Source of the DNA: Candidatus Saccharimonadales bacterium
Lineage (GTDB): Bacteria; Patescibacteriota; Saccharimonadia; Saccharimonadales; UBA10212
Reading direction: 5' to 3'
Length of the DNA stretch: 64,000 nt
Assembly (NCBI GenBank): GCA_049521895.1
Contig: JBEKOJ010000001.1
Coordinates: forward strand, 162,717-226,716
In this document: in pieces, positions 9,078 through 47,968 of the stretch
Position numbering within the stretch: the first letter of the stretch is position 1
How the letters are laid out: each line of letters begins with the position of its first letter
The notes under the pieces: generated by a model
The model's database searches: none
The model's input: the letters and a program-made list of their open reading frames with translations, nothing else
What the model was told of the DNA's origin: nothing
Position numbers and translations under genes: made by a program

Positions 9078-9081
9078 ACAA

Positions 9082-9180
9082 CCATTTTACATTTTTCACT
9101 TGGCATTTGACATTTATTTACCATTGTTAAATGTTCAATGCTAAATTAATGTAAATTGAAAATTGTAAATTGAAAATTCA
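9082..9180. repeat. Low-complexity quasi-palindromic spacer repeat, family A (CATTT/ACC arm and AAATG/TAAATTG arm)
   Basis: The 5' arm ccattttacatttttcacttggcatttgacatttatttaccattg faces the 3' arm caatgctaaattaatgtaaattgaaaattgtaaattgaaaatt. It shares the core GCATTTGACAT with the copies at 28983 and 37111. Confidence 0.6.
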
Positions 9181-9188
9181 GGTCGCGC

Positions 9189-9701
9189 TTAGAGTGCGGC
9201 CTCTAAAGCGGCCCATTCGGCATCCACGGAGTCATCTTCGGGAATGTTCACGCTTACTTGGTCGCCTGGTTTGGCTTTAAAATATGTCACACTGGCCAGC
9301 AGCACACGGTATTGTTTATCACCAACGTCTACAAAATAGTGTCCGTCTTTCTGATTGAGAACACCAACCAGCTGTTTGCGCGGAATCGGGCCGATCTGTT
9401 TATACATAAAGGCGCCGTCTTCAGCTATGGTCAGCTTCAGGATATCGCCTTGCACCAATTTTGACTTGCTGGCGTAATTAGCCGGCACCGGATAGGTTTT
9501 ACCATCGGAACCGACCATATTCTGGCCATCAAACACCCCCTCGACAATCTTGCCTAGGGATTTATCCTTAGCTTTACCTATCAACTCCGGTTCGTCGCCT
9601 ACTAAGCTTACGATCAGCTCTTTGGCCGCCGCCAAGCTAGTTTCTGCTTCACTTATAAGTGATTTCAAGCGTTTAATTTGTTTTTCTGGTATGTCTGCCA
9701 T
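9189..9701 (-). CDS. Hypothetical protein (170 aa)
   Basis: A long ORF with a GGAGA-type RBS (ggagaaacaaaATG). I recognised no domain. Confidence 0.65.
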   Translation of the reverse strand: MADIPEKQIKRLKSLISEAETSLAAAKELIVSLVGDEPELIGKAKDKSLGKIVEGVFDGQNMVGSDGKTYPVPANYASKSKLVQGDILKLTIAEDGAFMYKQIGPIPRKQLVGVLNQKDGHYFVDVGDKQYRVLLASVTYFKAKPGDQVSVNIPEDDSVDAEWAALEAAL

Positions 9702-10906: not shown

Positions 10907-10930
10907 ATTATCTCTTGAGCATTATTTTCT

Positions 10931-10958
10931 ATAAAAAGACCTTGGCGATTTACCAAGG
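10931..10958 (-). terminator. Putative intrinsic attenuator hairpin in the rplJ leader
   Basis: The minus strand reads CCTTGG-taaatcg-CCAAGG followed by TCTTTTTAT, about 25 nt upstream of the rplJ ATG. Confidence 0.45.
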
Positions 10959-11094
10959 ACTACAGAAGATGTCTGCACAACAATACATTGCGCGTTAACC
11001 TCGGTAGCAGATTAAGCCCGCTTGTCGCGGGCAGCTACTGTCTTTGGCAATCTAATAGTAGATTAGCACAACCTGCAACTTCTTACAAGTCCTA
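10959..11094 (-). promoter_or_regulatory. Candidate L10(-L12) autoregulatory leader
   Basis: This 188-nt untranslated gap holds nested stems (GTAGC..GCCCGC-gacaa-GCGGGC..GCTAC) upstream of the attenuator. The position matches known rplJ leaders, but identity was not verified. Confidence 0.35.
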
Positions 11095-14949: not shown

Positions 14950-15381
14950 TTAACTTTCTATCTCAATGCCCATGCTGCGGGCAGTACCAGCAACCATTTT
15001 TTTAATGGTTTCAATGTCTTCTGTGTTCATATCCTCGGCTTTAGCTTGGGCGATTTCGGTTAGCTGCGATTGGCTGAGCTTTTTCTCCAGCTTGGCTTTG
15101 TTGGGCTCACCAGAACCTTTCTCCTCTTTTAGGGCGGCTAAGATCAGTTCGTCTGTCGGCGTACCGACAACTCGCCAGTTCATACTCCTATCATCATAAA
15201 TGGTTATATGCACTGTCAACATTTGCCCCATGCGGTCTTTGGTCTGCTCGTTAAAAGGATTTACGAAGTCCATTATGTTCACGCCGTATTGGCCCAAGCT
15301 GGATCCCACTGGTGGCCCGGCACTAGCCTGTCCGCCGCGGATTTTCAATTTTAGATTTGCTTTAACTTCTTTAGCCATCAA
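14950..15381 (-). CDS. rplK: 50S ribosomal protein uL11
   Basis: 143 aa. ..GGQASAGPPVGSSLGQYGVNIMDFVNPFNEQT.. is canonical uL11. Confidence 0.96.
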   Translation of the reverse strand: MMAKEVKANLKLKIRGGQASAGPPVGSSLGQYGVNIMDFVNPFNEQTKDRMGQMLTVHITIYDDRSMNWRVVGTPTDELILAALKEEKGSGEPNKAKLEKKLSQSQLTEIAQAKAEDMNTEDIETIKKMVAGTARSMGIEIES

Positions 15382-15401
15382 AAGCTCCTTTCGGTCGCTT
15401 T

Positions 15402-15476
15402 AGGAACTAGAAACAAGGAACTAGGAACTAGTTTCAGCGCGATTCGCTTGTTGCTTGTTACTTGTTTCATGTTGCT
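15402..15476. repeat. Low-complexity quasi-palindromic spacer repeat, family B (GGAACTAG arm)
   Basis: The arm aggaactagaaacaaggaactaggaactag (29/30 identical to 26242-26271) faces cttgttgcttgttacttgtttcatgttgc. It fills the nusG-rplK spacer. Confidence 0.65.
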
Positions 15477-15479
15477 CGT

Positions 15480-19808: not shown

Positions 19809-19885
19809 GCCGAGGTAGCTCAGTTGGCTAGAGCACGTCATTGGTAATGACGAGGTCACGGGTTCGATTCCCGTCTTCGGCTCCA
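19809..19885 (+). tRNA. trnT: tRNA-Thr (anticodon GGU), CCA end encoded
   Basis: Acceptor GCCGAGG/CTTCGGC, anticodon arm CGTCA-TTGGTAA-TGACG, T arm CACGG-TTCGATT-CCGTC. Confidence 0.92.
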
Positions 19886-19886
19886 T

Positions 19887-20909
19887 TTAACTTTCTGACT
19901 TTATAGCGGCCTTGACCTTTTCGATAGCTTCTTCCACATTGTTAGCCTGGACTTTACCTCCGGCTGCAGGTCTATGGCCACCGCCACTAAACTTGGTAGC
20001 AATTTTTGACACGTCTTTAACTCCGCCAAGTGAACGCAGGGACACAGAGTAAGTATGTTCGCCATCTAACAGATCCAGATAAACCAAAAAACCCCACTTT
20101 CGGCCATCAATATTGCGGATATATTCATCGAGGAACGGCTTGGTAGCCATATGCAAGCTGGCTAGGGGTTTGCCGCTTCTTTGCCAATTTTCGACGAACT
20201 CGTCGTTTATGAATGAATACGAGTAGCCAGCCTCGCCCGTGACGTTGTTAGCCAGCTCGCTAATGACCTTCATTTGATCTCCGGAATACTGGTTAAGGTG
20301 ATTTTTAATTTCCTCTATGACGGCACCGGCCGCGATAAGTTCTGCGGCCAGTTTAAATGTCTGTGCGTAGCGCGGATTATCGTAAGTAAAACCGCCCGTG
20401 TCGGCGTAAAGACCGAGCATCGTCGTGACAGCGTATCCTTGGGGTTTTTTAAGATTCATCTCATTAAAGCATAATTCATATACTTCTTGTACTGTCGCGG
20501 GATTACCGGAATTTAAATAGCAGTCAACCTTATCTTTTCCGTCTGGTTCATGATGATCAATAATGGCGGTTTTTACTCTATTCTTGAGCGCGTATTCCCT
20601 CGCCTGCTGGCCGTCATGGCGGCTGCAGCGTTCAAAGCTATTGGCGTCAACCAGTATTATCAAATCAGGTTTAAATTGTTCGATGTTTTGGGTGATATTA
20701 CTGAAAATCAGCTGATCGTAGCCGTTCAGAAAATCAAGGCCTTCGGGCTTTTCTTCCAGAACCATCCGAATTTTCTTATCTGGAAAATTTAGCTGAAGTG
20801 TCGTACCAAGCAGCAGAACCGAAGCTGTAGCGTCCGGGTCCGGCGAGATGTGCGAGGTTATTAAAATCCGCTCTGCTGTGTCGATATATTGTTTGAATTT
20901 ATCAATCAT
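19887..20909 (-). CDS. DHH/DHHA1 family phosphoesterase (second NrnA-like paralog)
   Basis: Has DHH (IIDHHEPD) and DHHA1 (GGGHRPAAGG) motifs. I chose the ATG at 20909 because the longer ORF runs into tRNA-Tyr. Confidence 0.8.
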   Translation of the reverse strand: MIDKFKQYIDTAERILITSHISPDPDATASVLLLGTTLQLNFPDKKIRMVLEEKPEGLDFLNGYDQLIFSNITQNIEQFKPDLIILVDANSFERCSRHDGQQAREYALKNRVKTAIIDHHEPDGKDKVDCYLNSGNPATVQEVYELCFNEMNLKKPQGYAVTTMLGLYADTGGFTYDNPRYAQTFKLAAELIAAGAVIEEIKNHLNQYSGDQMKVISELANNVTGEAGYSYSFINDEFVENWQRSGKPLASLHMATKPFLDEYIRNIDGRKWGFLVYLDLLDGEHTYSVSLRSLGGVKDVSKIATKFSGGGHRPAAGGKVQANNVEEAIEKVKAAIKSES

Positions 20910-25736: not shown

Positions 25737-26218
25737 CTTTTTGAGTCCTTAGCTGAGAGCTTAGAGTCCTTAGCTTTAGTTTTAGTGTCCTTTCTTGAAT
25801 TGTTCCTAGCTGGGGACTTTGGACTAGGGACTGAGGACTTCGAAGCTTTAAGCTTCGATAGATCATCCACGAAACTGACTGAGGCCATTTGGGCACCATC
25901 ACCACGGCGCAGAACAGTACGCTTTACTCGCAGATGGCCGCTGTCACGACCGCTTAATTTTGGGACCATATCATCAACCAGCTTATGGGCGGCCTCAAGG
26001 GTAAGCAACCCTCGGATAACCTGGCGGCGGTTATGCAAGCCGCCCGCTTTAGCTTTTGTGATTAGCTTCTCGGTGTAGCTAGATACCTCTTTGGCCTTCG
26101 GCAGGGTAGTTTCAATCGATTCGCGCAGCACCAAAGAATCAGCCAACCCCTTTATTAGAGCTTCGCGCTGGTCGCGCTCGCGGCCGAATTTTTTACCTTT
26201 GTATCCGTGGCGGTGCAT
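25733..26218 (-). CDS. rplQ: 50S ribosomal protein bL17 with K/S-rich C-terminal tail
   Basis: MHRHGYKGKKFGRERDQREALIKGL.. is canonical bL17, and the gene follows rpoA. Confidence 0.95.
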   Translation of the reverse strand: MHRHGYKGKKFGRERDQREALIKGLADSLVLRESIETTLPKAKEVSSYTEKLITKAKAGGLHNRRQVIRGLLTLEAAHKLVDDMVPKLSGRDSGHLRVKRTVLRRGDGAQMASVSFVDDLSKLKASKSSVPSPKSPARNNSRKDTKTKAKDSKLSAKDSKR

Positions 26219-26241
26219 TACGCGCTTCCTCCGGAGGCTAT

Positions 26242-26306
26242 AGGAACTAGGAACAAGGAACTAGGAACTAGTTTTTCCTGTTTCCTGTTTCCTGTTTCCT
26301 GTTTCC
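26242..26306. repeat. Low-complexity quasi-palindromic spacer repeat, family B, with (CCTGTTT)x4
   Basis: The arm aggaactaggaacaaggaactaggaactag is followed by tttttCCTGTTTCCTGTTTCCTGTTTCCTGTTTCC. The arms pair as AGGAA/UUCCU blocks with regular mismatches. Confidence 0.7.
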
Positions 26307-26327
26307 TAAAAATGCTTTGCATTTTTA
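26307..26327. other. A/T hairpin TAAAAATGC-ttt-GCATTTTTA overlapping the rpoA stop codon
   Basis: A perfect 9-bp palindrome. The same hairpin occurs at the rpsH stop (33516-33538). Confidence 0.6.
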
Positions 26328-27288: not shown

Positions 27289-27906
27289 TTAGCGTGAATA
27301 ATACTCTACGACTAGTTGCTCTTTAATATCCGGTTCGGCATCATCCCTGGTTGGCATACCAGAAACGGTAATTTCCAGGTTTTTGCGGTTAACTTTCATC
27401 CAAGCTGGAATAGCCGGTGGCGCAGGGCTGGTTTCATCCAATCGCTTAAAATAATCGTTGCTTTTGCTTTTGTCCCTCAGGCTAATCTGATCGCCGACAG
27501 TTACTCTAATAGATGGAATATCTACCCGACGGCCGTTAAACATAAAGTGGCCGTGTGTAACCAGCTGGCGGGCAGACCGACGTGACGGGGCAAGACCGGC
27601 ACGATAAATTACGTTATCCAAGCGACGTTCTAGGTATTGCAGCAAGGTGGCGCCAGATTGGCCAGTAGTTTTAGTGGCTTCGCTCATTAATTTAGCAAAC
27701 TGGCGTTCTAGCAGACCGTAAAGCCTTTTAATTTTTTGTTTTTCACGCAGCTGCAAGGAATACTGGCTAGCCTTACCCCTGGGGCGGTAGTTGGCTGCCT
27801 GGCCCGGCAATGTAGTTCGTTTAACTAAAGCTTTGTGAGCCTTGGGGTGCAGCGCGTAACCTTCTCGACGCGAACGCTTAACTATGGATTGCAAATCTCT
27901 AGCCAT
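27289..27906 (-). CDS. rpsD: 30S ribosomal protein uS4
   Basis: ..QYSLQLREKQKIKRLYGLLERQF.. plus the S4 domain ..LDNVIYRAGLAPSRRSARQLVTHGH... Confidence 0.96.
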   Translation of the reverse strand: MARDLQSIVKRSRREGYALHPKAHKALVKRTTLPGQAANYRPRGKASQYSLQLREKQKIKRLYGLLERQFAKLMSEATKTTGQSGATLLQYLERRLDNVIYRAGLAPSRRSARQLVTHGHFMFNGRRVDIPSIRVTVGDQISLRDKSKSNDYFKRLDETSPAPPAIPAWMKVNRKNLEITVSGMPTRDDAEPDIKEQLVVEYYSR

Positions 27907-27926
27907 TACAGACCTCCTTCGGAGGT

Positions 27927-28038
27927 AATTATCAATTTACAATTATCAATTCTCAATAATTTAGCATCTGTCATCTGCCATTGATCAAATGAAAAATGTG
28001 AAATTAATGGTAAATGGTAAATGGGATATGGTAAATGG
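27927..28038. repeat. Low-complexity quasi-palindromic spacer repeat, family A (about 85% identical to 34041-34138)
   Basis: Reads attatcaattctcaataatttagcat...gccattgatcaaatgaaaaatgtgaaattaatggtaaatggtaaatgggatatggtaaatgg. Confidence 0.7.
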
Positions 28039-28051
28039 ATGCGCAGCATCA

Positions 28052-28534
28052 TTAGGTTCTCCGAGCCTTTCGTGGACGCACGCCACCGTGGGCGATACTA
28101 GTTACGTCTTTAATCCCTTCAACCTCAATCTTCTGGTTTATCAGGGTTCTAACAGCCGCTTCACGGCCCAGGCCAATGCCCTTGATGAGTACTTCCAACT
28201 TACTGATGCCATAGTTTTGTTTGGCGGTATCTATAGCCTTTTCAGCAGCGATTTGCGCGGCGTAAGCAGTGCCTTTTTTGGAACCACGGAAGCCGGAACT
28301 GCCAGCGCTGGCACTTGACAAGACATTACCTTTGGGATCAGTGATGGTAACAATGGTGTTATTGAAGCTTGCTAAGATGTGGGCTTGACCCTGCGGCACA
28401 GAACGCTTAGCCCGCGATTTTTTAGGCTTAGCGACGGGAGTTGGCACTTCTATAGCTTTAGCATTATCAGTCTCAATAGTTTCTGCGACTGCGGGTTCTT
28501 TCATTTCTTTAGTCTTTACTTCTTCTTTAGCCAT
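28052..28534 (-). CDS. rpsK: 30S ribosomal protein uS11 with about 35-aa N-terminal extension
   Basis: ..GQAHILASFNNTIVTITDPKGNVLSSASAG..GSKKGTAYAAQ.. is canonical uS11. Confidence 0.95.
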   Translation of the reverse strand: MAKEEVKTKEMKEPAVAETIETDNAKAIEVPTPVAKPKKSRAKRSVPQGQAHILASFNNTIVTITDPKGNVLSSASAGSSGFRGSKKGTAYAAQIAAEKAIDTAKQNYGISKLEVLIKGIGLGREAAVRTLINQKIEVEGIKDVTSIAHGGVRPRKARRT

Positions 28535-28537
28535 AAT

Positions 28538-28924
28538 TTATGTCTTGCTTGGCGCTTTTCTCGCAGTACCACTAACGGTCACCTTCTTGCCGCGGCGAGT
28601 TCTAGCATTAGTCCGAGTTCGTTGGCCACGGCTTGGCAAGTTGGCGCTGTGGCGTAAGCCGCGATAAGTCCCAATGTCTTTAAGCCGTTTAATATTGCCA
28701 GTAACGATACGTTGCAGCTCGCCTTCTACCGTATAGTTATTGGTAATAACCTCCTGTAAACGGGAGATTTCGCTGTCAGTAAGGTCTTTAACACGTACAG
28801 TTGGTTCAATATTGGCGCTGTCTAGGATATTAGTGCTCAGCTTGGGGCCAATGCCGTAAATATAGGTTAAAGCTACCCACACTTGTTTGCCATCAGGAAT
28901 CGTTACACCAGATATCCGCGCCAC
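28538..28924 (-). CDS. rpsM: 30S ribosomal protein uS13 (GTG start)
   Basis: (M)ARISGVTIPDGKQVWVALTYIYGIG.. matches the uS13 N-terminus. GAGAGG lies 6 nt upstream of the GTG at 28924. The ORF-track ATG at 28960 lies inside a 14-nt tandem duplication. Confidence 0.85.
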   Translation of the reverse strand: MARISGVTIPDGKQVWVALTYIYGIGPKLSTNILDSANIEPTVRVKDLTDSEISRLQEVITNNYTVEGELQRIVTGNIKRLKDIGTYRGLRHSANLPSRGQRTRTNARTRRGKKVTVSGTARKAPSKT

Positions 28925-28960
28925 TAAAAGCCTCTCGTGGATATATTTATCATTGAGCAT

Positions 28961-29083
28961 TTATCATTGAGCATTGATTTAACAGGTAGCATTTGACATT
29001 GTTCGGAATTGCTAAATGAGAAATGAGAAATAAATGGTAAATGTGAATTGGTAAATGTGAATTGGAGCAATTTCATTGCGACT
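28961..29083. repeat. Low-complexity spacer repeat, family A variant
   Basis: Contains aggtagcatttgacattg and aaatgagaaatgagaaataaatggtaaatgtgaattggtaaatgtgaattgg. A tandem atttatcattgagc x2 sits at 28945-28972. Confidence 0.6.
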
Positions 29084-31119: not shown

Positions 31120-31470
31120 TTAAGTTTTGGCGGTTTTTTGCTTGACGCGAGCCAAGCGTCCAACTTCGGTAAAACTGCCACCAGCCTTCCCGGCAGTAGA
31201 GCTTCGAGTGCCAAACGAACCAGACATGGAATTGTAAGAGCTTAACATTCGATTGAGTGATCTTCGTCCGACGCTAGTTTTAAAATAGCCCTCTCGTCGT
31301 TTGGCATCATCAAAGTTAAGATGTGCTTCATAGTAGATTAACTTCCAGTTATTTGGAGATTTAGTAGAGAAGTTTTGGCCAGCATTATGTTCCCTGACTC
31401 TCTTTCGCAGATTATTCGTCCGACCAATGTAACGGTTCGCACCATTCTCTAGTACGTACACGTAATACAT
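31120..31470 (-). CDS. GIY-YIG (URI) domain protein, YhbQ/UPF0213-like
   Basis: MYYVYVLENGANRYIGRTNNLRKRVREHN.. is the GIY..YIG..R..E..N pattern. It lies between rplO and secY. Confidence 0.8.
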   Translation of the reverse strand: MYYVYVLENGANRYIGRTNNLRKRVREHNAGQNFSTKSPNNWKLIYYEAHLNFDDAKRREGYFKTSVGRRSLNRMLSSYNSMSGSFGTRSSTAGKAGGSFTEVGRLARVKQKTAKT

Positions 31471-32873: not shown

Positions 32874-33413
32874 TTATGCCTCCTTACCGCTCTTACCGCT
32901 CTTGCGCAGGATGCGCTCGTCGATATACTTGATACCTTTGCCTTTATAGGGCTCGGGCTTCTTGAGAGCTCGGATTTCGGCGGCTACCTGTCCTACTTGC
33001 TGCTTATTTATGCCTGAAACTGTGATAACGTTCTGTTCTATGCCAATTTGGATGCCAGTTGGTACTTTATATACTACTTCGTGCGAAAATCCAAGATTAA
33101 ACTTTAAATTGATACCAGCTTGCTGCACGCGGTAACCAACGCCGTTAAGCTCCAGCTTCTTTTCAAAACCCTGGCTAACGCCAGCGACCATATTATTGAG
33201 CAGAGCACGCATTAGACCGTGGTTAGCGCGGGTAGCAGCCTGGTTGTCGGCTCGCTCTACTTGCACTAGGCCATTTTTGCTGACCACAGAAATACCGGGA
33301 AGATTAAATTGTTCGAGTTCTCCCTTGGGGCCGGTTACGGTCACAAAATGCTGGTCAGCAGTCACGTTGACACCACCAGGTAATGTAATCGGCATTTTTC
33401 CTATTCGACTCAT
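32874..33413 (-). CDS. rplF: 50S ribosomal protein uL6
   Basis: MSRIGKMPITLPGGVNV.. and ..PEPYKGKGIKY.. are canonical uL6. Confidence 0.96.
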   Translation of the reverse strand: MSRIGKMPITLPGGVNVTADQHFVTVTGPKGELEQFNLPGISVVSKNGLVQVERADNQAATRANHGLMRALLNNMVAGVSQGFEKKLELNGVGYRVQQAGINLKFNLGFSHEVVYKVPTGIQIGIEQNVITVSGINKQQVGQVAAEIRALKKPEPYKGKGIKYIDERILRKSGKSGKEA

Positions 33414-33435
33414 TACGCAACCTCCGGTTGCTTTA

Positions 33436-33515
33436 GTAAAAAGTAAAAAGTAAAAAGTAAAAAGCTAACAGCGGCATATGGTGGCTGCTTGTTGCCTTTT
33501 ACTTGTTGCCTGTTG
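33436..33515. repeat. Low-complexity quasi-palindromic spacer repeat, family C, with (GTAAAAA)x4
   Basis: GTAAAAAGTAAAAAGTAAAAAGTAAAAAgctaacagc faces gctgcttgttgccttttacttgttgcctgttgc. Confidence 0.65.
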
Positions 33516-33538
33516 CTAAAAATGCAAAGCATTTTTAG
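33516..33538. other. A/T hairpin CTAAAAATGC-aaa-GCATTTTTAG overlapping the rpsH stop codon
   Basis: A perfect 10-bp palindrome, the same as at the rpoA stop except the loop is complemented. Confidence 0.6.
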
Positions 33539-33924
33539 TAGACCTCGCAGATTAGTTCGCCACCAATTTTTTTGGCGCGGGCCTGGTCACCAGTCATAAT
33601 CCCACGGGAAGTGGATAGTATTACTAAACCACGGCCACCTTTGACCTTAGGAATGGCATCGGCTCTTACATATAGGCGGCGACCCGGAGTACTAAGACGT
33701 GAGACCTCACTGATAGCCGCATTGCTATCTTCTGTCCGGATTGCTACCTCTAGCTGTTTGTGGCCCCCGGCCTCAACTACTTTAACGGATTGCAAAAAAC
33801 CATTTTCTGCCAGAAGTTCAGCAACCGCTTGTTTGATTTTTGAGTGCGGCAAGTTAACTGCGGTCTTGCCTGCGGCAATAGCATTACGAATACGACTAAG
33901 CATATCAGCGATGGGGTCTGTCAT
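33535..33924 (-). CDS. rpsH: 30S ribosomal protein uS8
   Basis: MTDPIADMLSRIRNA.. is the canonical uS8 N-terminus. I prefer the ATG at 33924 (GGAGG 5 nt upstream) to the GTG at 33930. Confidence 0.93.
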   Translation of the reverse strand: MTDPIADMLSRIRNAIAAGKTAVNLPHSKIKQAVAELLAENGFLQSVKVVEAGGHKQLEVAIRTEDSNAAISEVSRLSTPGRRLYVRADAIPKVKGGRGLVILSTSRGIMTGDQARAKKIGGELICEVY

Positions 33925-34040
33925 ACGCACCTCCGGTGCTCAATTTTCAATTTACAATTATATAGCTTCAAGCCAGGCTGGCTTTTATTTTTAAGGCTGG
34001 CCAGCTTGGTTTTGGCATATAATGCTTCCTTATCGGTCAC

Positions 34041-34138
34041 ATTATCAATTTTCAATAATTTAGCATTTAGTAATTGGCCATTGGTAAATGACAAATGAGA
34101 AATTAATGTGAAATGGTAAATGGGATATGGTAAATGGG
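34041..34138. repeat. Low-complexity quasi-palindromic spacer repeat, family A (about 85% identical to 27941-28038)
   Basis: Reads attatcaattttcaataatttagcatttagtaattggccattggtaaatgacaaatgagaaattaatgtgaaatggtaaatgggatatggtaaatggg. Confidence 0.7.
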
Positions 34139-34159
34139 ATGACATAGTCATTTTATCTC

Positions 34160-34429
34160 CTACCAACTGCTCTTAGTTACGCCCGGTATCTCACCCTTGG
34201 AAGCGTGCTCACGGAAGGCGATACGGCTTAAGCCGAACTGACGCATATAACCGCGCGAGCGGCCGGTCTCGGCACAGCGGTTCTTGCGGCGGGTAGGGCT
34301 GGAATTGCGCGGTAACAGATGAAGACCTTCATAATTGCCGGCGGCCTTAAGCTCAGCCCGCTTAACGGCATACTGGTCGATCATCCTTAGGCGCTTGGCA
34401 TCGCGCGCTAATACAGATTTCTTGGCCAT
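34160..34429 (-). CDS. rpsN: 30S ribosomal protein uS14 (long, non-zinc type)
   Basis: [13 protein letters not shown].. with the C-terminus ..[21 protein letters not shown] is canonical uS14. Confidence 0.95.
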
Positions 34430-34562
34430 TATTTGCGCCCTCCGGGCTTATGAAGACAACCTACGGTTTTCCTCATCGAACCTTTTGGAATAAATCCAAA
34501 TTCGCCTCGCGAACCGGTTATACTCTTTTCCCTTAGGTTAACTACTACTGTAAATGATTTCA
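34430..34562 (-). promoter_or_regulatory. Structured intercistronic leader upstream of rpsN (paralog of the rplB leader)
   Basis: The minus strand reads TAAGGGAAAAGAG..hairpin..CGATGAGGAAAACCGTAGGTTGTCTTCATAAGCCCGGAGGGCGCAAATAATG. Compare 39349-39460. Confidence 0.45.
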
Positions 34563-35207
34563 TTATTTACTCTTACTTTCAAGTGACTTGTGCTGCCCAT
34601 TCGACGTGCTCAGGGCACTCTGAGGGCTACTCGAAGGGTGAGGTTTCTCGAAAGGCAGGCCAAACTTAGTTAGTAAGGCTTTGGCCTGTTCGGGATTTTG
34701 CGCCTGGATAATAAACGTCACTTGCAATCCATGCGCTGTGGCGGTCTCTTCAAAGCTAAGCTCTGGGAAAACCGACTGGTCTACCAGCCCAAGACTGTAG
34801 CTGCCTTGTTTATCAAATGAACTGGTGCTCACGCCGTGAAAGTCACGCAAGCGGGGCAGGACAATATTGATCAGCCGGTCAGCAAACTCATACATTCTAT
34901 CACCTCTGAGCGTAACTTTCAGCCCTATTTTATTTCCTTCGCGTAACTTAAAGCTGGCGATAGACTTTTTCGCGGTGGTTTCCACGGGTTTTTGGCCAGT
35001 AATTTTAGCCAAAGTGTTGGCTGCCACCTCTAGCAAGCGCTTTTCGTCCTTGGCCTTGCCCACACCTGCACTGACTACAATTTTCTCCAAGCGCGGAGCT
35101 TCATGGATATTTCTGAGCCCGAGCTCGTTTTTAAGCTCGCCAGCCCAAACATCTTTATAGCTGGTGCTCAAACGCGGCTTATAAGCAGGTTTGGTTACGG
35201 TAGCCAT
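34563..35207 (-). CDS. rplE: 50S ribosomal protein uL5 with about 35-aa C-terminal tail
   Basis: ..LRNIHEAPRLEKIVVSAGVGKA.. and ..LRGDRMYEFADRLINIVLPRLRDFHG.. are canonical uL5. Confidence 0.95.
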   Translation of the reverse strand: MATVTKPAYKPRLSTSYKDVWAGELKNELGLRNIHEAPRLEKIVVSAGVGKAKDEKRLLEVAANTLAKITGQKPVETTAKKSIASFKLREGNKIGLKVTLRGDRMYEFADRLINIVLPRLRDFHGVSTSSFDKQGSYSLGLVDQSVFPELSFEETATAHGLQVTFIIQAQNPEQAKALLTKFGLPFEKPHPSSSPQSALSTSNGQHKSLESKSK

Positions 35208-35230
35208 TAGACGCTCCCTTTAGTCGCTTT

Positions 35231-35305
35231 AGGTGACAGGTTGTAGGTTGTAGGTGACAGTTTAGTTACAGTTTTTGTAACCTGTAACCTGTAACCTGTA
35301 ACCTG
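35231..35305. repeat. Low-complexity quasi-palindromic spacer repeat, family D, with (GTAACCT)x4
   Basis: aggtgacaggttgtaggttgtaggtgacag faces GTAACCTGTAACCTGTAACCTGTAACCT. The arms pair as AGGU/ACCU blocks on the mRNA strand. Confidence 0.65.
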
Positions 35306-35326
35306 ATGATGAGTGGAACGAATCAT

Positions 35327-36635: not shown

Positions 36636-37052
36636 TTATTGCTCTTCCTTGATCACAAACATCGTTTTAACTGGTAATTTGTGTCCGGCCAGGCGCATGG
36701 CCTCGCGGGCAGTTTCCTCGGTTACGCCGCCCATTTCGAACATGATAGTCCCGGGTTTAACCTTAGCGACGAAGAATTCCGGGCTGCCCTTGCCGACGCC
36801 CATTTTGGTACCCAAGGCTTTTTGGGTAACTGGTATATGCGGGAAGACCCTAATCCAAATTTGGCCGCCACGCTTAATGTAGCGGGTCATAGCTTGGCGG
36901 GCAGCTTCAATTTGGCGGCTGGTAATGCGCTCGCTTTGCTGGCTTACCAGGCCGAAGCGGCCGTAGGCCAGTTCGTCCAAGGACGTGGCTACACCACCGT
37001 GAATACGACCTTTGCGAACCTTACGAAACTTAGTGCGAGACGGCATCAGCAT
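36636..37052 (-). CDS. rplP: 50S ribosomal protein uL16
   Basis: [19 protein letters not shown].. and ..[28 protein letters not shown].. are canonical uL16. Confidence 0.97.
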
Positions 37053-37071
37053 AACAGAGTTCCTTCGGGGC

Positions 37072-37185
37072 TATTTACCATTGACCATTTGCCATTTTCC
37101 AGTGATTTACCAGGTAGCATTTGCCATTGGTTAGATAAAAAATCAGCAATAAATGTTAAATGTAAATTGTTAAATGTAAATTGGA
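37072..37185. repeat. Low-complexity quasi-palindromic spacer repeat, family A (inverted orientation)
   Basis: tatttaccattgaccatttgccattttccagtgatttaccaggtagcatttgccattgg faces caataaatgttaaatgtaaattgttaaatgtaaattgg. Confidence 0.65.
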
Positions 37186-37200
37186 ATGACGGAGTCATGA

Positions 37201-38514: not shown

Positions 38515-39348
38515 TTATCTCCTCTTCCCCTGGTGGCGGGTTCTTACGATAAACTTACTGCTAATATTGCGGCGGCGGGTTTTATACCCAAGGGTTTTCT
38601 GGCCCCAAGGTGTCCGGGGGTCTTTTTCAGTACCGTGCTTACCCTCGCCACCACCATGCGGATGGTCAGCGGCGGCCATGACTACACCGCGGACCGTTGG
38701 CCTGATACCCATGTGACGCTTGCGGCCGGCCTTGCCGATTTGGATATTTTGATGCTGCTCATTGCCCACGGTGCCAACAGAGGCCATACAGTCAACGTGT
38801 ATCATTCTAATTTCTCCACTAGGTAATCGCACTTGGGCATATTTTTCTTCTTTTGCTATAAGTTGTGCGCCGGCCCCGGCGGTGCGGGCCAGTTGGGCGC
38901 CCCGGCCTGGCTGAAGCTCAATAGCATGTATAGTTGTACCAGTTGGGATGTTTTTAATTGGCAAGCGGTTGCCCCGTTCGATGGAGGCTTCTTCGCTCAC
39001 ATTGACCTTTCGGCCAACTCGCATCCCTTTGGCGGCTAAGACGTAGTGGTGGTTGCCATCTTGGTCAATGACTCTGGCAATTCTAGCGCTACGGTTGGGG
39101 TCGTATTCTATATGTTCAATGGTCGCGCTTGTACCCACGGACGGCTTAAAATTAACCATGCGGTAATACCGTCTGGCGCCGGCGCCGCGATGACGGGTGG
39201 TAATTCGCCCCTGGTTATTGCGGCCCACAGAACCTTTTTTAATGCGAATTAGGCTGCGCAGCGGTTTATCGGTAGAAATGCCAGCAAAATCCTGGCTGCT
39301 CATGCCGCGGCGACTTGGAGTTGTAGGTTTGTAAGCTTTAACGGCCAT
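38515..39348 (-). CDS. rplB: 50S ribosomal protein uL2
   Basis: MAVKAYKPTTPSRRGMS.. and ..HPHGGGEGK.. are canonical uL2. I chose the ATG at 39348. Confidence 0.96.
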   Translation of the reverse strand: MAVKAYKPTTPSRRGMSSQDFAGISTDKPLRSLIRIKKGSVGRNNQGRITTRHRGAGARRYYRMVNFKPSVGTSATIEHIEYDPNRSARIARVIDQDGNHHYVLAAKGMRVGRKVNVSEEASIERGNRLPIKNIPTGTTIHAIELQPGRGAQLARTAGAGAQLIAKEEKYAQVRLPSGEIRMIHVDCMASVGTVGNEQHQNIQIGKAGRKRHMGIRPTVRGVVMAAADHPHGGGEGKHGTEKDPRTPWGQKTLGYKTRRRNISSKFIVRTRHQGKRR

Positions 39349-39460
39349 TATTTGCGCCTCCGGCTTATAAGACAAACCTGGCGGTTTTTCTCATCGCGCC
39401 GGCAAAATAAAATACATTTTGTCGGGCTGCTCTTTTCCCTATAGCTATTCAGCTGCATCA
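39349..39460 (-). promoter_or_regulatory. Structured intercistronic leader upstream of rplB (paralog of the rpsN leader)
   Basis: The minus strand reads TATAGGGAAAAGAG..CCGACAAAAT-gtatttt-ATTTTGCCGG..CGATGAGAAAAACCGCCAGGTTTGTCTTATAAGCCGGAGGCGCAAATAATG. Confidence 0.45.
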
Positions 39461-39802
39461 TTATTTCTTCCCCTTAGTTTCTGGTTTAGTCTCGGGCTCT
39501 TCGACAGCGGCAAAAATCGGCAGCTTATCGCCTTCTTTCAGGACGACGTAAGCTTTGCGGAAGTCAGAACGCCGCGCTCTATGCGACACCCGGCCTCCAC
39601 GGCGGTATGTTCTTTTAGTCTTAGCGGGCGCACCAGTGATGCGTACTTTTATAACCGAGACACTGTATTGTTTGGCTACGGCATCTGCTACGCTAAGGCT
39701 GTTTACTCCGCTCGGGACTTCGAATAGATAGGTATTGAGCTCCTCGCTTAGGGAATAGGCTTTTTCGCTCAGACGCGGTTTAAGCACGACCGATTTATTC
39801 AT
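39461..39802 (-). CDS. rplW: 50S ribosomal protein uL23
   Basis: ..VLKPRLSEKAYSLSEELNTYLFEVPSGVNSLSVADAV.. is uL23, and the gene sits between rplD and rplB. Confidence 0.92.
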   Translation of the reverse strand: MNKSVVLKPRLSEKAYSLSEELNTYLFEVPSGVNSLSVADAVAKQYSVSVIKVRITGAPAKTKRTYRRGGRVSHRARRSDFRKAYVVLKEGDKLPIFAAVEEPETKPETKGKK

Positions 39803-41177: not shown

Positions 41178-41444
41178 TTAGTGGAGGGTCAGCACCAGGC
41201 CGATCGGCACCCAGAAGCCAACAAACATTGCCACCAGCAGCAGTGCGTATTCAATTTTACGGTCAATCCTAAAATGGTCGTGGGCCGCAAATAGCAAGCC
41301 CAGCAATGCGCCGTAAGGTATTGGAATTTGGGCACCGGTCTTGGTTTCTATCTTGAACCACTGCGAGCCAACTATTAGATACAGCACCAGTTTCAGAATA
41401 TATAAGCTGTCTGGTTCTTGCTTGGCCGTTTTGTTGTTTGCCAT
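41178..41444 (-). CDS. Small membrane protein (88 aa, 3 predicted TM), unknown function
   Basis: Has hydrophobic segments LYILKLVLYLIVG, YGALLGLLFAA and ALLLVAMFVGFWVPIGLVL. It starts 16 nt after the aminopeptidase stop. Confidence 0.6.
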   Translation of the reverse strand: MANNKTAKQEPDSLYILKLVLYLIVGSQWFKIETKTGAQIPIPYGALLGLLFAAHDHFRIDRKIEYALLLVAMFVGFWVPIGLVLTLH

Positions 41445-41460
41445 AAGAATTAATATAGCA

Positions 41461-42672
41461 CTAAACAGTAAACTGACCGTTCTTATAGATCACTTCTTGA
41501 CTGCCATCAGACAATGTAGCGGTAACAATCCGATCGGTAGTAGAAATCATATCAACGTGAATAGCTGACTCGTTATAGCCTAACTTTTTCGATAGCGACG
41601 GAGTCATTTTCTTTGTATCGCCATCGAATGTATCGTGATAGCTTTTACCAACCGCTAGGTGGGTATTGCCAAACCGGCCGCCCATATTTTCGTCAAACAG
41701 CGTTTCAGCCATAAATTTGGTGATATGGCTCAGGCGCCTATCAGTCAATGAGAATTCGCCGATTTGTGACGCACCGTCATCCGTAGCTAGCATTTCCCGC
41801 AAGAGTTTCTGATTTTTGCTGGCTGTGGCTCTAACTACCCGACCCACCTTAAAAGTAAGCTCTATGTCCTGGACGCGCGGGCCATAGTAATACAGTGGTT
41901 GGTTAAAGCGGATCCGGCCTTCCGTACCATGCCAATCCGGTGAGGTAAAGACCTCAAAGCTTGGTATATTGCGTCCGCCACCACCCAACCATTTGCGCTT
42001 CTTTCCCATTGTTATATGCAAATCGACGTCTTTGCCAACCACATGCAGTTTATCTATTCGCAGTCTGGTAAGCCTTGTTGCTACGCGCTGGACTTCTTTG
42101 CTGGTCTTGCGCCACTCGGCGATCGGATCAGATTTGTCTAAGTAACAGGCTTTTATTATTTGACGCCAATGGCCTTTCTCGCTAAGCCCAGCCTCTTTGG
42201 CCATACTTGGCGTGCCGTAAAGAGCCAGAGTCCATGTGTATTTGCCAATGTTTTCTTTGTCGTTAAGCCAATCGGCGAGAGGTTTGGCGCTCTTTTGGGT
42301 GAGCATTATCTTTTTTGGATCTATTTTGTCCAGTTCATGTACATCATGTTCAGCGATTACGGCAATACGGTGGTCAACTTGCTCAACTAGTCCCTTGAAG
42401 TACTTGTCGAGAAATGCAACCAGCTGCTGGTGATTAGCGTGTTCGTAAAAGTATTTTGCAGCGCCGGACATATCGTCCGCCAGACCATTAATAAGAATCC
42501 CGCCGCTATCTATGATATTTTTTCGCAAAGCCCGATAAAAAGGCAGAGCCGACAGTGGCGATTGCAAAAAAACCACCTCCCCGGGCTTGATACCGCTGCC
42601 ACCACCCAGCGCAAAATTTACCAAAACCTTGGCATACTTATCAAGAATCTCTTCTGGGGGCGTATAGCTCAT
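41461..42672 (-). CDS. M29 family aminopeptidase (AmpS/PepS-like)
   Basis: 403 aa. The N-terminus ..LDKYAKVLVNFALGGGSGIKPGEVVFL.. and ..FDENMGGRFGNTHLAVGKSY.. resemble aminopeptidase T/S. Confidence 0.8.
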   Translation of the reverse strand: MSYTPPEEILDKYAKVLVNFALGGGSGIKPGEVVFLQSPLSALPFYRALRKNIIDSGGILINGLADDMSGAAKYFYEHANHQQLVAFLDKYFKGLVEQVDHRIAVIAEHDVHELDKIDPKKIMLTQKSAKPLADWLNDKENIGKYTWTLALYGTPSMAKEAGLSEKGHWRQIIKACYLDKSDPIAEWRKTSKEVQRVATRLTRLRIDKLHVVGKDVDLHITMGKKRKWLGGGGRNIPSFEVFTSPDWHGTEGRIRFNQPLYYYGPRVQDIELTFKVGRVVRATASKNQKLLREMLATDDGASQIGEFSLTDRRLSHITKFMAETLFDENMGGRFGNTHLAVGKSYHDTFDGDTKKMTPSLSKKLGYNESAIHVDMISTTDRIVTATLSDGSQEVIYKNGQFTV

Positions 42673-42741: not shown

Positions 42742-43071
42742 TCACATCTTGATTTCGGCGTCACAGCCTGCCGGTAAAGACAGGTTCATAAGACTGTCTA
42801 TAGTCTTCGGTGTAGGGTCGGAAATGTCTATCAGGCGTTTATGTACGCGCATCTCAAACTGCTCCCTGCCCTTTTTATAAATATGCGGGCTTTTGATGAC
42901 CGTAAAGGTGCTTTTGCGGGTTGGCAGAGGGATCGGCCCGGCAATTTTAGCGCCGGTGCGCAGAGCGGTCTCTACAATCTGTTTAGCAGACTGGTCAATG
43001 ACCTTGTGGTCATAGGCCTTAAGACGGATTCTAATCCGCTGCTTCACTTCGGGTTCTTTAGTCTCTGCCAT
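42742..43071 (-). CDS. rpsJ: 30S ribosomal protein uS10
   Basis: ..[33 protein letters not shown].. is canonical uS10. Confidence 0.97.
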
Positions 43072-43277
43072 TACTCTTCCTCGTCATCCATAGCGCCCCA
43101 GGCTGCTTCGAATTCTTCGGCCTGACGCATCCTATATGACAGGGTTCCGGGGGTATTTGCCAAAGTTTCGGCCATGGAGCTAACTATCCCGCTTTTAAGC
43201 GTTGGGTCATCGACTGTTATGCCTGCCTCTTCAAGGACAAGGTCCACAAGCTGCTGATCAAACTCAGGACTAGACAT
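43071..43277 (-). CDS. Small acidic protein (68 aa) translationally coupled between tuf and rpsJ
   Basis: Its ATG overlaps the tuf stop (TAATG) and its stop overlaps the rpsJ ATG (TAATG). It has an acidic C-terminus ..AMDDEEE, and I recognised no family. Confidence 0.6.
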
Positions 43278-47385: not shown

Positions 47386-47865
47386 TTATCCCCGGGCAAA
47401 ATGGGCGAAAGCACGGTTGGCCTCGGCCATGCGGTGTGTATCTTCTTTTTTCTTAACTGCTTCGCCGGTATTGTTGTAAGCGTCAACCAGTTCAGCGGCG
47501 ATACGATCTTGCATGCTAATGCCGCTGCGGGCACGGGCGGCCGCTACGAACCACATGGTGGTCAGGTGTTGCTGGCGTTGGCTCTTAACCTCAAAGGGGA
47601 TCTGATAATTAGCGCCGCCAACCCGGCGGGAGCGGGTTTCCATATAAGGCTGGATGTTTTTTATGGCTTGCTCGAAAACTTCCAGCGGGTTTTGGACCTT
47701 GAGTTTATCGGCGGCTTTTTGCATACCGCCATAAACTAACCCTTCAGCAACTTGCTTCTTGCCATTCAGCATTACCCGATTGATAAGCTTAGCAACCTGG
47801 GTGCTGTTGTACATACGATCCGGTGCGGCTGGCCGAATCAAGGCTTTAGTGGTCTTACGCGGCAT
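47386..47865 (-). CDS. rpsG: 30S ribosomal protein uS7
   Basis: MPRKTTKALIRPAAPDRMYNSTQVAKLINRVMLNGKKQVAE.. is canonical uS7. I chose the ATG at 47865. Confidence 0.96.
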   Translation of the reverse strand: MPRKTTKALIRPAAPDRMYNSTQVAKLINRVMLNGKKQVAEGLVYGGMQKAADKLKVQNPLEVFEQAIKNIQPYMETRSRRVGGANYQIPFEVKSQRQQHLTTMWFVAAARARSGISMQDRIAAELVDAYNNTGEAVKKKEDTHRMAEANRAFAHFARG

Positions 47866-47882
47866 TAGCAATCTCCGATTGC

Positions 47883-47966
47883 GGTATGGGGTATGGGGTA
47901 TAAGGTATAAGGTATTTATCGTCCACGACTCCATACTTAATACCTGATACTTGATACGAAATACCC
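47883..47966. repeat. Low-complexity quasi-palindromic spacer repeat, family E (GGTATGG/GGTATAA arm)
   Basis: ggtatggggtatggggtataaggtataaggtattta faces ccatacttaatacctgatacttgatacgaaataccc. Confidence 0.65.
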
Positions 47967-47968
47967 AT

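Follow-up and report, generated by a model that had tools for sequence, protein, structure and literature searches.

Heptamer-repeat cassettes with bridging reading frames at ribosomal-protein gene junctions of Candidatus Saccharibacteria

Introduction

Few gene arrays of bacteria are as conserved and compact as the ribosomal-protein (r-protein) operons, and repeats that sit in them in ultra-small, genome-reduced lineages of the Candidate Phyla Radiation (CPR) raise the question of how such DNA can be carried there. Here, we address this question for a 64-kb stretch of DNA from an uncultivated peat Candidatus Saccharibacteria (CPR/Patescibacteria), referred to throughout as the window, in which several spacers between r-protein genes hold copies of a dispersed, imperfectly palindromic repeat of about 100 nt termed family A. 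A first-pass annotation of the window had described family A as occupying long spacers. That observation is partly confirmed: the repeat is real, its description was in part mistaken, and the key feature is that the inserts are reading frames bridging the upstream and downstream genes.

The comparison set was obtained by a SecY search, which returned 52 loci of about 20 kb each with SecY identities of 59-83%, nearly all of them from Candidatus Saccharibacteria or Saccharimonadales metagenome-assembled genomes. Window and relatives together make up the 918 kb that were scanned for repeats. The longest contig carrying the window sequence measures 769 kb, and contigs of four independent peat-metagenome assemblies match the window at 100% over 17.7-20.9 kb. 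Because these four assemblies are independent and identical, an assembly artefact is excluded.

Bridging reading frames at the long junctions

Every long r-protein junction in the window contains a minus-strand open reading frame (ORF) of 30-76 codons, hereafter a mini-ORF. Its ATG overlaps or abuts the stop codon of the upstream gene (TAATG, TAGATG, or a stop followed by 2-7 nt), and its own stop codon overlaps the start of the downstream gene (TAATG, TAGTG, ATGA or ATGCTGA). Four of the window mini-ORFs are called as genes in ENA (48, 50, 44 and 76 aa), none with a Pfam domain. Over all genomes, a sense ORF leading from the upstream stop to the downstream start was found in 102 of 120 long spacers. 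This property is specific to one strand: of 109 spacers, 105 have a frame open from end to end on the sense strand and 23 on the antisense strand, with 29 expected from dinucleotide shuffles (z ~19).

Both ends of the mini-ORFs are precisely placed. The start codon is ATG in 90 of 101 and lies at an offset of -3 to +9 in 97 of 101, and the stop offsets cluster at -2 (49), +1 (18), +4 (9) and +5 (16). A Shine–Dalgarno (SD)-like motif precedes 76 of 101 mini-ORF starts; it is sited within the upstream gene's 3' end, at the place that the downstream gene's SD occupies in relatives. The downstream gene is in turn preceded by an SD-like motif inside the element in 94 of 101 cases. The arrangement is not restricted to r-protein genes, since an element at a non-ribosomal junction of locus L053 (holB-like/TPR gene, 19815-19985) follows the same bridging rule.

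The peptides encoded by the mini-ORFs evolve nearly neutrally. Seven family B copies from one genome (family B is introduced below) have a ratio of nonsynonymous to synonymous polymorphism (pN/pS) of 0.79, and a search of 5.8 billion proteins with the peptide of the family A copy A1 recovered the peptide itself and one weak relative (49% identity). Neither the peptide nor an mRNA hairpin seems to be under selection.

Family A in the window

Family A has five copies in the window, all on the minus strand. A1 (27907..28051) occupies the rpsK(S11)/rpsD(S4) junction, and its mini-ORF (27906-28052, 48 codons) has a TAATG overlap at each end. A3 (28925..29083), at rpmJ(L36)/rpsM(S13), contains 50 codons (28924-29076) closed by a TAG that overlaps the GTG start of S13. 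The mini-ORF of A4 (37053..37200; rpsC(S3)/rplP(L16) junction) also has 50 codons (37046-37198), with its stop 4 nt inside L16 (ATGCTGA). At the rpsN(S14)/rpsH(S8) junction, A2 (33925..34159) has a 3' arm that is enlarged by an additional insert of ~85 nt; the mini-ORF of this copy (33921-34151), with 76 codons counted from the ATG, ends in an ATGA overlap with S8. The insert (~33960-34045) contains two GC-rich palindromes (CAAGCTGGCCAGCCTT / AAGCCAGCCTGGCTT). The 76-codon ORF stays open across it, and the antisense strand there scores as terminator-like. A5 (9078..9188) lies between a hypothetical gene (9189-9701) and dnaX, and its polarity agrees with that of the other copies. Of the five copies, A5 alone lacks a bridging ORF, and its hairpin is the most stable one (z -3.4). 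An ORF exactly fills each of the other four, which removes the premise of long untranslated spacers.

The repeat itself is well supported. All five positions given at first pass were recovered, as were the names of the flanking genes and their minus-strand location. A1 (27927-28038) and A2 (34041-34138), described as about 85% alike, are 87.8% identical over 98 nt. A3 and A4 have two blocks in common, of 38 nt (89%) and 27 nt (93%), and A5 resembles A1 over 41 nt at 88%. The core GCATTTG(A/C)CAT, said to be common to three copies, occurs exactly three times in the window (9103, 28989 and 37117) against 0.25 expected, and none of 100 shuffles reached this count. The two arms also agree with the earlier description: on the mRNA (minus) strand a G-poor arm is followed by a C-poor arm, and CCAUUUA against UAAAUUG forms 6 of 7 pairs with a C-U mismatch.

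Two parts of that picture did not survive, namely the spacers as untranslated DNA (see above) and the orientation of two copies. The copies at 37072 and 9082 had been read as inverted, but the five window copies are colinear in mRNA sense, and so are all eight copies, from four species, in the family A alignment (the five in the window and three from other species). A1, A3 and A4 encode the peptide motif ISHFSF..QWQM with its order unchanged. What looked like an inversion is due to a single-base difference between the two arm types (CCATTTA versus CAATTTA). In addition, family A makes up just a part of the roughly ten heptamer elements in the window.

Anatomy of the cassettes

The common building block of these elements is the heptamer. 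Tandem Repeats Finder located 24 period-7 arrays in about ten elements of the window, and they are paired inside nearly every long r-protein junction. The 918 kb contain 158 period-7 arrays, and every other period is represented by at most 23. In a typical element, a first arm with a mean of 4.4 units is separated by about 20 nt from a second arm with a mean of 4.2 units of a roughly complementary heptamer. The consensus units of the two arms are complementary at 4.9 of 7 positions, compared with 3.95 +/- 0.15 for permuted partners (0 of 2000 permutations as high), and 68% of the arm pairing is Watson-Crick. AT-rich and varied in sequence, the units combine into about 30 distinct pairs. As expected for elements of the MITE type (miniature inverted-repeat transposable elements), they are below 300 bp, multi-copy and built with inverted-repeat arms; the median length of the junction elements is 120 nt.

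In mRNA sense, the order of parts is an ATG-containing mini-palindrome, about four heptamers, a core of about 20 nt, about four complementary heptamers, an SD module and a stop codon. The 5' palindrome, exemplified by TCATGACnnnGTCAT, AAATGCnnnGCATTT and GCAATGAAATTGC, lies 0-9 nt from the upstream stop codon or overlaps it. At the 3' end, modules such as GAGCACCGGAGGTGCGT and AAGCGACTGAAAGGAGCG bear the SD, often within a small hairpin, and the terminal stop codon of the element overlaps the start codon of the downstream gene. The core sometimes contains a nested insert. A GC-rich palindromic element of about 70 nt (...CACCAAAnCCTGAGCGGAGTAGTCTGCAATCAGATTATG...) is nested within heptamer elements of L017 (L5/S14 and S8/L6) and L053 (S3/L16 and 19815-19985). 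It occurs in both orientations, and the host mini-ORF is open either way.

The heptamer arrays avoid in-frame stop codons. Stops predicted from the unit consensus are kept in 0 of 62 cases in frame and in 134 of 166 cases out of frame, a count that is partly circular because the ORFs were chosen for being open. An example is CTAGTTC CTAGTTC CTtGTTC; in the rpoA/rplQ element of the window an in-frame TAG is avoided in this way, the third 3' unit being CTtGTTC. The regular arm mismatches remarked on at first pass have the same origin, as the heptamers deviate from their consensus where in-frame stops would arise.

Distribution and turnover among relatives

The long spacers are exceptional at these positions. 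As had been supposed, the corresponding junctions of most relatives are compact (-8 to +12 nt), typically with TAATG or ATGA overlaps. Spacers of 70-400 nt are patchy, and the junctions affected differ between genomes. Some lineages have a repeat of about 100 nt at a third of their r-protein operon junctions, and L053 and L056 have long spacers at almost every junction. Period-7 arrays were found in 19 of the 53 scanned sequences (the window and 18 relatives), and there are none in relatives with SecY identities of 70% or less or in the closest relative, L007 (83%). Among the loci compared, the cassette class is confined to one subclade of Candidatus Saccharibacteria.

Clustering of 109 long junction spacers by sequence gave 45 clusters. 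The family A supercluster is dispersed over 29 members, 12 genomes and 11 junction types, and family B has 15 members, nine of them from L053. Matches between element pairs are in the same orientation in 130 cases and inverted in 16, and all window elements lie between same-strand genes. When empty sites are set against filled ones, the element falls exactly between the stop and the start codon, as relatives have a stop, 0-9 nt and an ATG at the corresponding position.

Replacement of one element by another was observed between two strains. Over 20.8 kb, L003 and the window share 99.5% identity, and the S8/L6 junction of L003 holds a 120-nt element of the AGGTTAC family that is 79% identical to the L24/L5 element of the window. 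The window has at S8/L6 an unlike element of 121 nt and of the AGCAACA/CTTTTTA type. The replaced tract is limited exactly by the S8 stop and the L6 start. Between these strains, spacers diverge at 7% of positions against 0.5% overall, and every element variant in L003 retains its ORF. In A2 (33925-34159), the strains have 10 core differences within about 30 nt, nearly identical arms and an intact ORF in both; the patch looks like gene conversion. A search for further strain variants with the S8 protein returned just copies of the two known haplotypes.

Several independent assemblies (L004-L006, L061 and L062) end inside A2, at window positions ~33976-34075, as expected for a dispersed repeat. 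Many S8-carrying contigs are shorter than 5 kb.

RNA structure and signals

The first-pass annotation had pictured the arms as a hairpin in the mRNA. On the mRNA strand, however folded, the palindrome is thermodynamically weak: A1 to A5 have z-scores of -2.18, -0.87, +0.16, -0.73 and -3.40, respectively; A1 and A5 beat their shuffled controls, and A2-A4 do not. Over 71 elements the mean folding z is -1.7, the sense strand being the more stable one in 28 and the antisense strand in 43 (p=0.08). All seven window spacers tested are more stable in antisense. This advantage probably exists because stop avoidance puts mismatches on the sense strand. Among the arm mismatches, sense G-U (48) and sense A-C (65) do not differ significantly (p=0.13). 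The SD lies within a small hairpin in 35% of elements compared with 24% of compact junctions, an enrichment that is modest and only suggestive of SD sequestration.

At the Rfam gathering threshold, the window contains tRNAs and an L10 leader (10923-11065) only, and a scan of positions 25000-48500 at E<=1 gave no relevant match. Curated r-protein leaders and autoregulatory RNAs were rejected as the identity of the elements, as no covariance model of Rfam matched them. Terminator-like sites in the spacers number 24 (20.2 +/- 3.8 expected), just one of them on the mRNA strand, and sigma-70-like promoter sites number 19 (16.6 +/- 4.1 expected), so that neither kind is enriched. A structured regulatory RNA hairpin was rejected as a description of the elements on account of the weak z-scores, the lack of a sense-strand advantage and the fact that G-U pairs are not favoured.

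Mechanism and alternative explanations

How could an insert of this size be tolerated in an essential operon? Overlapping stop and start codons are the arrangement linked to termination-reinitiation coupling, and Rho loads on untranslated RNA, translated RNA not being a Rho substrate (PMC12548453). An insert of 100-240 nt would, by itself, part the downstream start from the terminating ribosome and expose untranslated RNA to Rho. With a bridging frame, the ribosome ending the upstream gene could re-initiate on the cassette ATG by means of the old SD in the upstream 3' end, and would melt the weak hairpin as it translates. It would then stop on the downstream start, where the same ribosome, or one recruited by the cassette SD, would initiate. 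Coupling would be preserved and no long untranslated RNA would be left for Rho, so that the elements would be nearly neutral for the operon because they relay ribosomes. The peptides themselves would be functionless, and the palindromic heptamer arms would be a trace of origin or copying at the DNA level rather than an mRNA regulatory structure.

We therefore regard it as probable, though well short of certain, that family A is one family of small, modular, imperfectly palindromic and MITE-like cassettes located at translationally coupled junctions, where they are tolerated since ribosomes are relayed across them. Being bridging ORFs is probably what lets the inserts persist as repetitive DNA in essential operons without breaking them. 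Four roles had been offered at first pass and none chosen: RNase III or RNase E processing, Rho loading, ribosome standby, and a MITE-like selfish repeat. The MITE-like option fits best, given that most relatives lack elements at the corresponding junctions, that families recur at differing junctions, and that a strain of 99.5% identity has a different family at one of them. The other three lack support, as the sense fold is not favoured, Rfam has no match and terminators are not enriched, and the standby and Rho-loading ideas are further weakened because the inserts are bridging ORFs.

Several points weigh against this reading. Translation of the mini-ORFs and coupling through them are predictions from the sequence, as are polarity avoidance and mobility by a dedicated mechanism. 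The count of avoided stops is in part circular, as said above, and A5, with no ORF, indicates that the frame is not obligatory everywhere. Neither a transposase nor a reverse transcriptase nor another mobilising enzyme was found beside the elements in the 64-kb window or the ~20-kb loci. TAATG or ATG occurs at both element ends, identical to what coupling needs, and since coupling requires TAATG/ATGA overlaps, a target-site duplication would be indistinguishable from functional convergence. The S8/L6 swap in L003 could have come from homologous recombination with foreign DNA via the flanking conserved genes. In the window, nine of the ten heptamer elements are in translation operons and ~33 kb of other genes are without arrays; this concentration and the near saturation of L053 and L056 would be surprising if the elements were just tolerated, and may point to a benefit or to targeting. 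SD sequestration in a hairpin is enriched to a modest degree only.

If there is such a benefit, the elements could be adaptive coupling cassettes that tune the ratios of neighbouring r-proteins via hairpin or SD strength, enforce coupling or protect mRNA segments. In one variant, heptamer slippage (7 = 1 mod 3) could serve as quick frame tuning or reset. The concentration just described agrees with this, as do the conserved architecture (an ATG in a mini-palindrome, an SD often in a mini-hairpin), the strikingly constant arm length of about four units, and the fact that the same hot junctions are filled by different families in independent lineages. We consider it unlikely nonetheless: most relatives, including the closest, L007 (SecY 83%), manage with compact junctions, an unrelated family has replaced another at one junction in a fast turnover, peptide evolution is near-neutral, and the enrichment of SD pairing is modest. 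Rather improbable is the proposal that the elements act as mRNA hairpins, be it in RNase III/E processing, as a barrier to 3' exonucleases, in Rho loading or as ribosome standby sites. It would explain an arm complementarity above chance, the folding of A1 (z -2.2) and A5 (z -3.4), the mean z of -1.7 over 71 elements, and the C-rich, G-poor 5' arms of family A; intra-operon enterobacterial repetitive intergenic consensus (ERIC) elements are reported to create RNase E sites (PMC3184786). It would not explain why the antisense strand is at least as stable (43 of 71 elements and 7 of 7 window spacers), why G-U pairs are not favoured on the mRNA strand (48 versus 65 A-C), or why A2, A3 and A4 fold no better than shuffles. 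A translated region is a poor substrate for Rho or standby binding, Rfam matches are nil and terminators are not enriched. In addition, the best hairpin belongs to the sole untranslated copy, A5, which suggests that translation erodes structure rather than that structure is selected.

The remaining two explanations deny the elements mobility or make the peptide primary. Neutral filler made in place by polymerase slippage on heptamers, immobile and functionless and with incidental ORFs, was the outcome that the first-pass annotation had set against its own proposals. Heptameric repeats are over-represented in many bacteria, and slippage linked to the polymerase footprint has been proposed for them (PMC4692102); the absence of elements from many relatives and the weak structure signal would also suit it. 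The ORF statistics (105 of 109 open in sense, 23 of 109 in antisense, 29 expected) and the precise placement of starts and stops contradict it. Complex families with non-repetitive cores and terminal modules recur at up to 11 junction types in 12 genomes, and unrelated families occupy one junction in two near-identical strains. This explanation is strongly disfavoured, and we give it very little credence. The notion that the mini-ORFs encode functional micro-proteins, for example ribosome-associated peptides, with the nucleotide repeats as a secondary matter, is equally remote. Gene callers do predict genes of 48, 50, 44 and 76 aa in ENA, and family-specific motifs recur (ISHFSF..QWQM, LVPSSYFLVS). 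Against this stand about 45 unrelated sequence clusters, the pN/pS of 0.79, essentially no homologues among 5.8 billion proteins and no Pfam match. What is conserved is the nucleotide sequence (palindromic arms and terminal modules), and the C-termini (..ATGRSV, ..EHRRCV) merely spell the SD module.

Beyond the reading of family A as tolerated MITE-like cassettes, a bolder version can be considered, which we hold as a speculation with a modest chance of being right. The elements would be exchangeable, obligately translated relay cassettes targeted to the stop/start junctions of highly expressed coupled operons. They would be copied or swapped between junctions and strains by an enzyme or through an RNA or ssDNA intermediate, and arm strength, SD masking and heptamer number (+1 frame per unit) would tune r-protein stoichiometry.

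Comparison with known repeat systems

Mycobacterial interspersed repetitive units (MIRUs) have a high GC content and are tandemly repeated as whole units at variable-number tandem repeat (VNTR) loci. By analogy of arrangement, the MIRU is the closest functional analogue of the cassettes, which have the co-directional operon location, the bridging ORF and the empty and filled sites known from it. MIRUs are apparently mobile, insert at start codons and carry an internal ORF coupled to the downstream gene (PMC12548453; PMC3184786). The ends of this ORF overlap the adjacent genes of a polycistron, according to a passage in Delihas that cites Supply et al. 1997 (PMC3184786). Both systems comprise short dispersed intercistronic repeats (40-100 bp in MIRUs) that are co-oriented with the flanking genes, have an ORF overlapping the flanking stop and start, and show empty versus filled sites that suggest insertion (PMC12548453, PMC3184786). 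The hosts differ (Actinomycetota versus CPR Saccharibacteria), and the two are set apart here by their descriptions, with no direct sequence comparison and no similarity to be expected. Membership in the MIRU proper (Mycobacterium families I-III) was rejected, as the host belongs to Saccharibacteria and each element is one unit with heptamers inside it rather than a tandem series of 46-101-bp units. Furthermore, the Saccharibacteria elements consist of two arrays of about four heptamers, fall into dozens of unrelated clusters, have their own SD module, and are concentrated in r-protein operons to near saturation in some genomes.

In size (100-200 bp), copy number, inverted arms, modularity, patchiness and nested insertions, the cassettes resemble MITEs, Correia repeat enclosed elements (CREE), ERIC elements (also called intergenic repeat units, IRU), BOX, repeat units of pneumococcus (RUP) and Nezha. 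Some small palindromic repeats sit in operons and are co-transcribed (PMC3184786), and some enterobacterial repeat units carry ORFs (PMC2759123). Within the window and the ~20-kb loci, neither a cognate transposase or insertion sequence with matching ends nor an unambiguous target-site duplication was identified for the cassettes. Their arms are short tandem-repeat arrays rather than unique terminal inverted repeats, and they obey a strict rule of orientation and frame, the start lying at the stop of the upstream neighbour and the stop at the start of the downstream one.

The heptamers themselves recall the short tandemly repeated repetitive (STRR) sequences of Calothrix and Nostoc and the GGGAATC repeats of Xanthomonas. 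These have about four units, are intergenic, sometimes form inverted stem-loop pairs, vary highly between close relatives and have no known function (PMC4692102). Heptamer period, period-7 over-representation, a length of about four units and inverted pairing (occasional in STRR and Xanthomonas) are common to both. The Saccharibacteria units differ in being AT-rich and very diverse, not G-rich and quadruplex-forming, and their arrays are always paired, located at stop/start junctions, co-oriented and open, which is unreported for the others in the literature covered. Membership in the cyanobacterial STRR was rejected: rpoC is unsplit (48401-52219), the relatives are Saccharibacteria, and about 30 AT-rich unit pairs are in use. 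Elhai and colleagues reportedly described, in 2008, very small mobile repeats embedded in Nostoc heptamer arrays, which would resemble the nested inserts of the Saccharibacteria elements.

Rickettsia palindromic elements (RPEs) are said, after work of Ogata and colleagues in 2000, to survive in essential expressed regions by staying translatable. RPEs and the cassettes are alike as palindromic selfish repeats kept translatable; RPEs differ in lying in frame within genes, as part of the host protein, where the Saccharibacteria elements form separate mini-cistrons. Repetitive extragenic palindromic sequences (REPs) are untranslated, GC-rich, stable hairpins of about 35 nt associated with REP-associated tyrosine transposases (RAYTs). 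REPs and bacterial interspersed mosaic elements (BIMEs) share with the cassettes the form of intercistronic palindromes in operons that are able to affect mRNA fate, but the Saccharibacteria hairpins are weak, AT-rich and presumably translated.

No paper on such repeats in Saccharibacteria was found by a search outside of which most subscription journals lay, and the combination of MIRU-like, MITE-like and heptamer simple-sequence-repeat features in Saccharibacteria appears to be undescribed. A 19-mer of (CCATTTA)x2.7 was discarded as a census probe for being nonspecific, with unrelated GC-rich bacteria and a eukaryote-like repeat among the matches listed. Also among these matches are hairpins of the form (TAAATGG/TGAATGG)n - loop - (CCATTTA)n directly upstream of ATG starts, which are not ORFs (L065, L070, L077, L113, L128, L130, L133, L138 and L142; GC 0.45-0.68; unrelated, often GC-rich bacteria). 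The range of the heptamer hairpin motif extends far beyond Saccharibacteria. A phage link was rejected, as a viral scan with the 5' module TCATGACTNCGTCATTCC gave two matches, both due to chance and inside a coding region.

Other elements and neighbouring genes

Five further heptamer-hairpin elements of the window, all on the minus strand, have the anatomy described above. The nusG/rplK element (15382..15479) has arms of AACAAGC and CTAGTTC and a mini-ORF of 30 codons (15378-15470), and the rpoA/rplQ(L17) element (26219..26324) combines AGGAAAC x4.9 with CTAGTTC x4.4 around 34 codons (26218-26322). AGCAACA and CTTTTTA form the arms at rpsH(S8)/rplF(L6) (33414..33534; mini-ORF 33413-33532, 39 codons), and CAGGTTA x4.3 and ACCTACA those at rplX(L24)/rplE(L5) (35208..35326; mini-ORF 35207-35326, 39 codons). 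At rpsL(S12)/rpsG(S7) (47867..47968), GTATCAA faces ATACCTT/ATACCCC, and the mini-ORF (47855-47968) has 37 codons.

Bridging frames also occur without heptamers. A non-heptamer insert at rplE(L5)/rpsN(S14) (34430..34562, minus strand) has a mini-ORF of 44 codons (34429-34563), and a second copy of its family at rplW(L23)/rplB(L2) (39349..39460, minus strand) has one of 37 codons (39348-39461), each with TAATG at both ends. This family (core ...GGGAAAAGAnnAGCCCGACAAAATGTATTnnATTTTGCCGG...AAAACCG...) has seven members in six genomes (window, L008, L011, L014, L051 and L056) and five junction types, with a bridging ORF in 7 of 7; the two window copies are open in different frames. The tuf/rpsJ spacer (205 nt; 43071-43277, minus strand) contains a 68-codon acidic ORF (...DDEEE) with a TAATG overlap at each end, and obeys the bridging rule with neither heptamers nor a palindrome. 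Similar non-repetitive bridging ORFs of about 100 aa are found at L2/S19 in L015, L020, L038, L041 and L051. The IF1/L36 and SecY/IF1 spacers are junctions usually without bridging ORFs. The secY/infA spacer holds the best sigma-70-like site of the region (29518-29489, minus strand; TTTACA-18-TATAAT, extended TG), whose sequence suggests an internal promoter for infA-rpmJ-rpsM.

Among the neighbouring genes, a 116-aa gene with a GIY-YIG/T5orf172 nuclease domain (31120-31470, minus strand) lies between rplO and secY in the spc operon. It occurs in 0 of 52 related loci and has no link with the occurrence of elements in other genomes. It appears to be a homing-endonuclease-like gene of recent insertion. 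At 41178-42672 (minus strand), rpsJ and rplC are kept apart by a gene for an M29 aminopeptidase (403 aa) and an ORF of 88 aa with no Pfam match, at a place where the S10 operon is usually contiguous; the S10/L3 distance in relatives is 125-985 nt. The 3' end of rplQ (L17; 25738-25839, minus strand) has period-21 and period-7 arrays (AGTCCCC-like) in a K/S-rich C-terminal tail, which may be a repeat-derived coding extension; L17 measures 145-183 aa among relatives. Ribosomal protein L1 (13892-14887, minus strand) is 331 aa long; its Pfam L1 domain spans residues 134-322 and is preceded by some 110 aa of N-terminal extension in which K, A and E are abundant. For the L1 extension and the L17 tail as absorbed elements, no convincing evidence was obtained.

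Significance

The cassettes suggest a survivability rule for insertions into such operons, namely that the insert must be a reading frame joining stop to start. They would be a second, phylogenetically remote case of the MIRU principle. They would also account for a class of CPR "hypothetical proteins" and explain contig breaks in the r-protein marker genes that are used for binning and phylogeny. At the sequence level, they are evidence that coupling, or the avoidance of untranslated RNA, is strongly selected in the CPR organisms studied. Finally, they tie the unexplained heptamer excess of bacteria (STRR and others) to a setting where selection can be read from the sequence, and if the bolder version of targeted relay cassettes is true, its logic might also account for the excess of heptamers over other periods among the long simple repeats of many bacteria.

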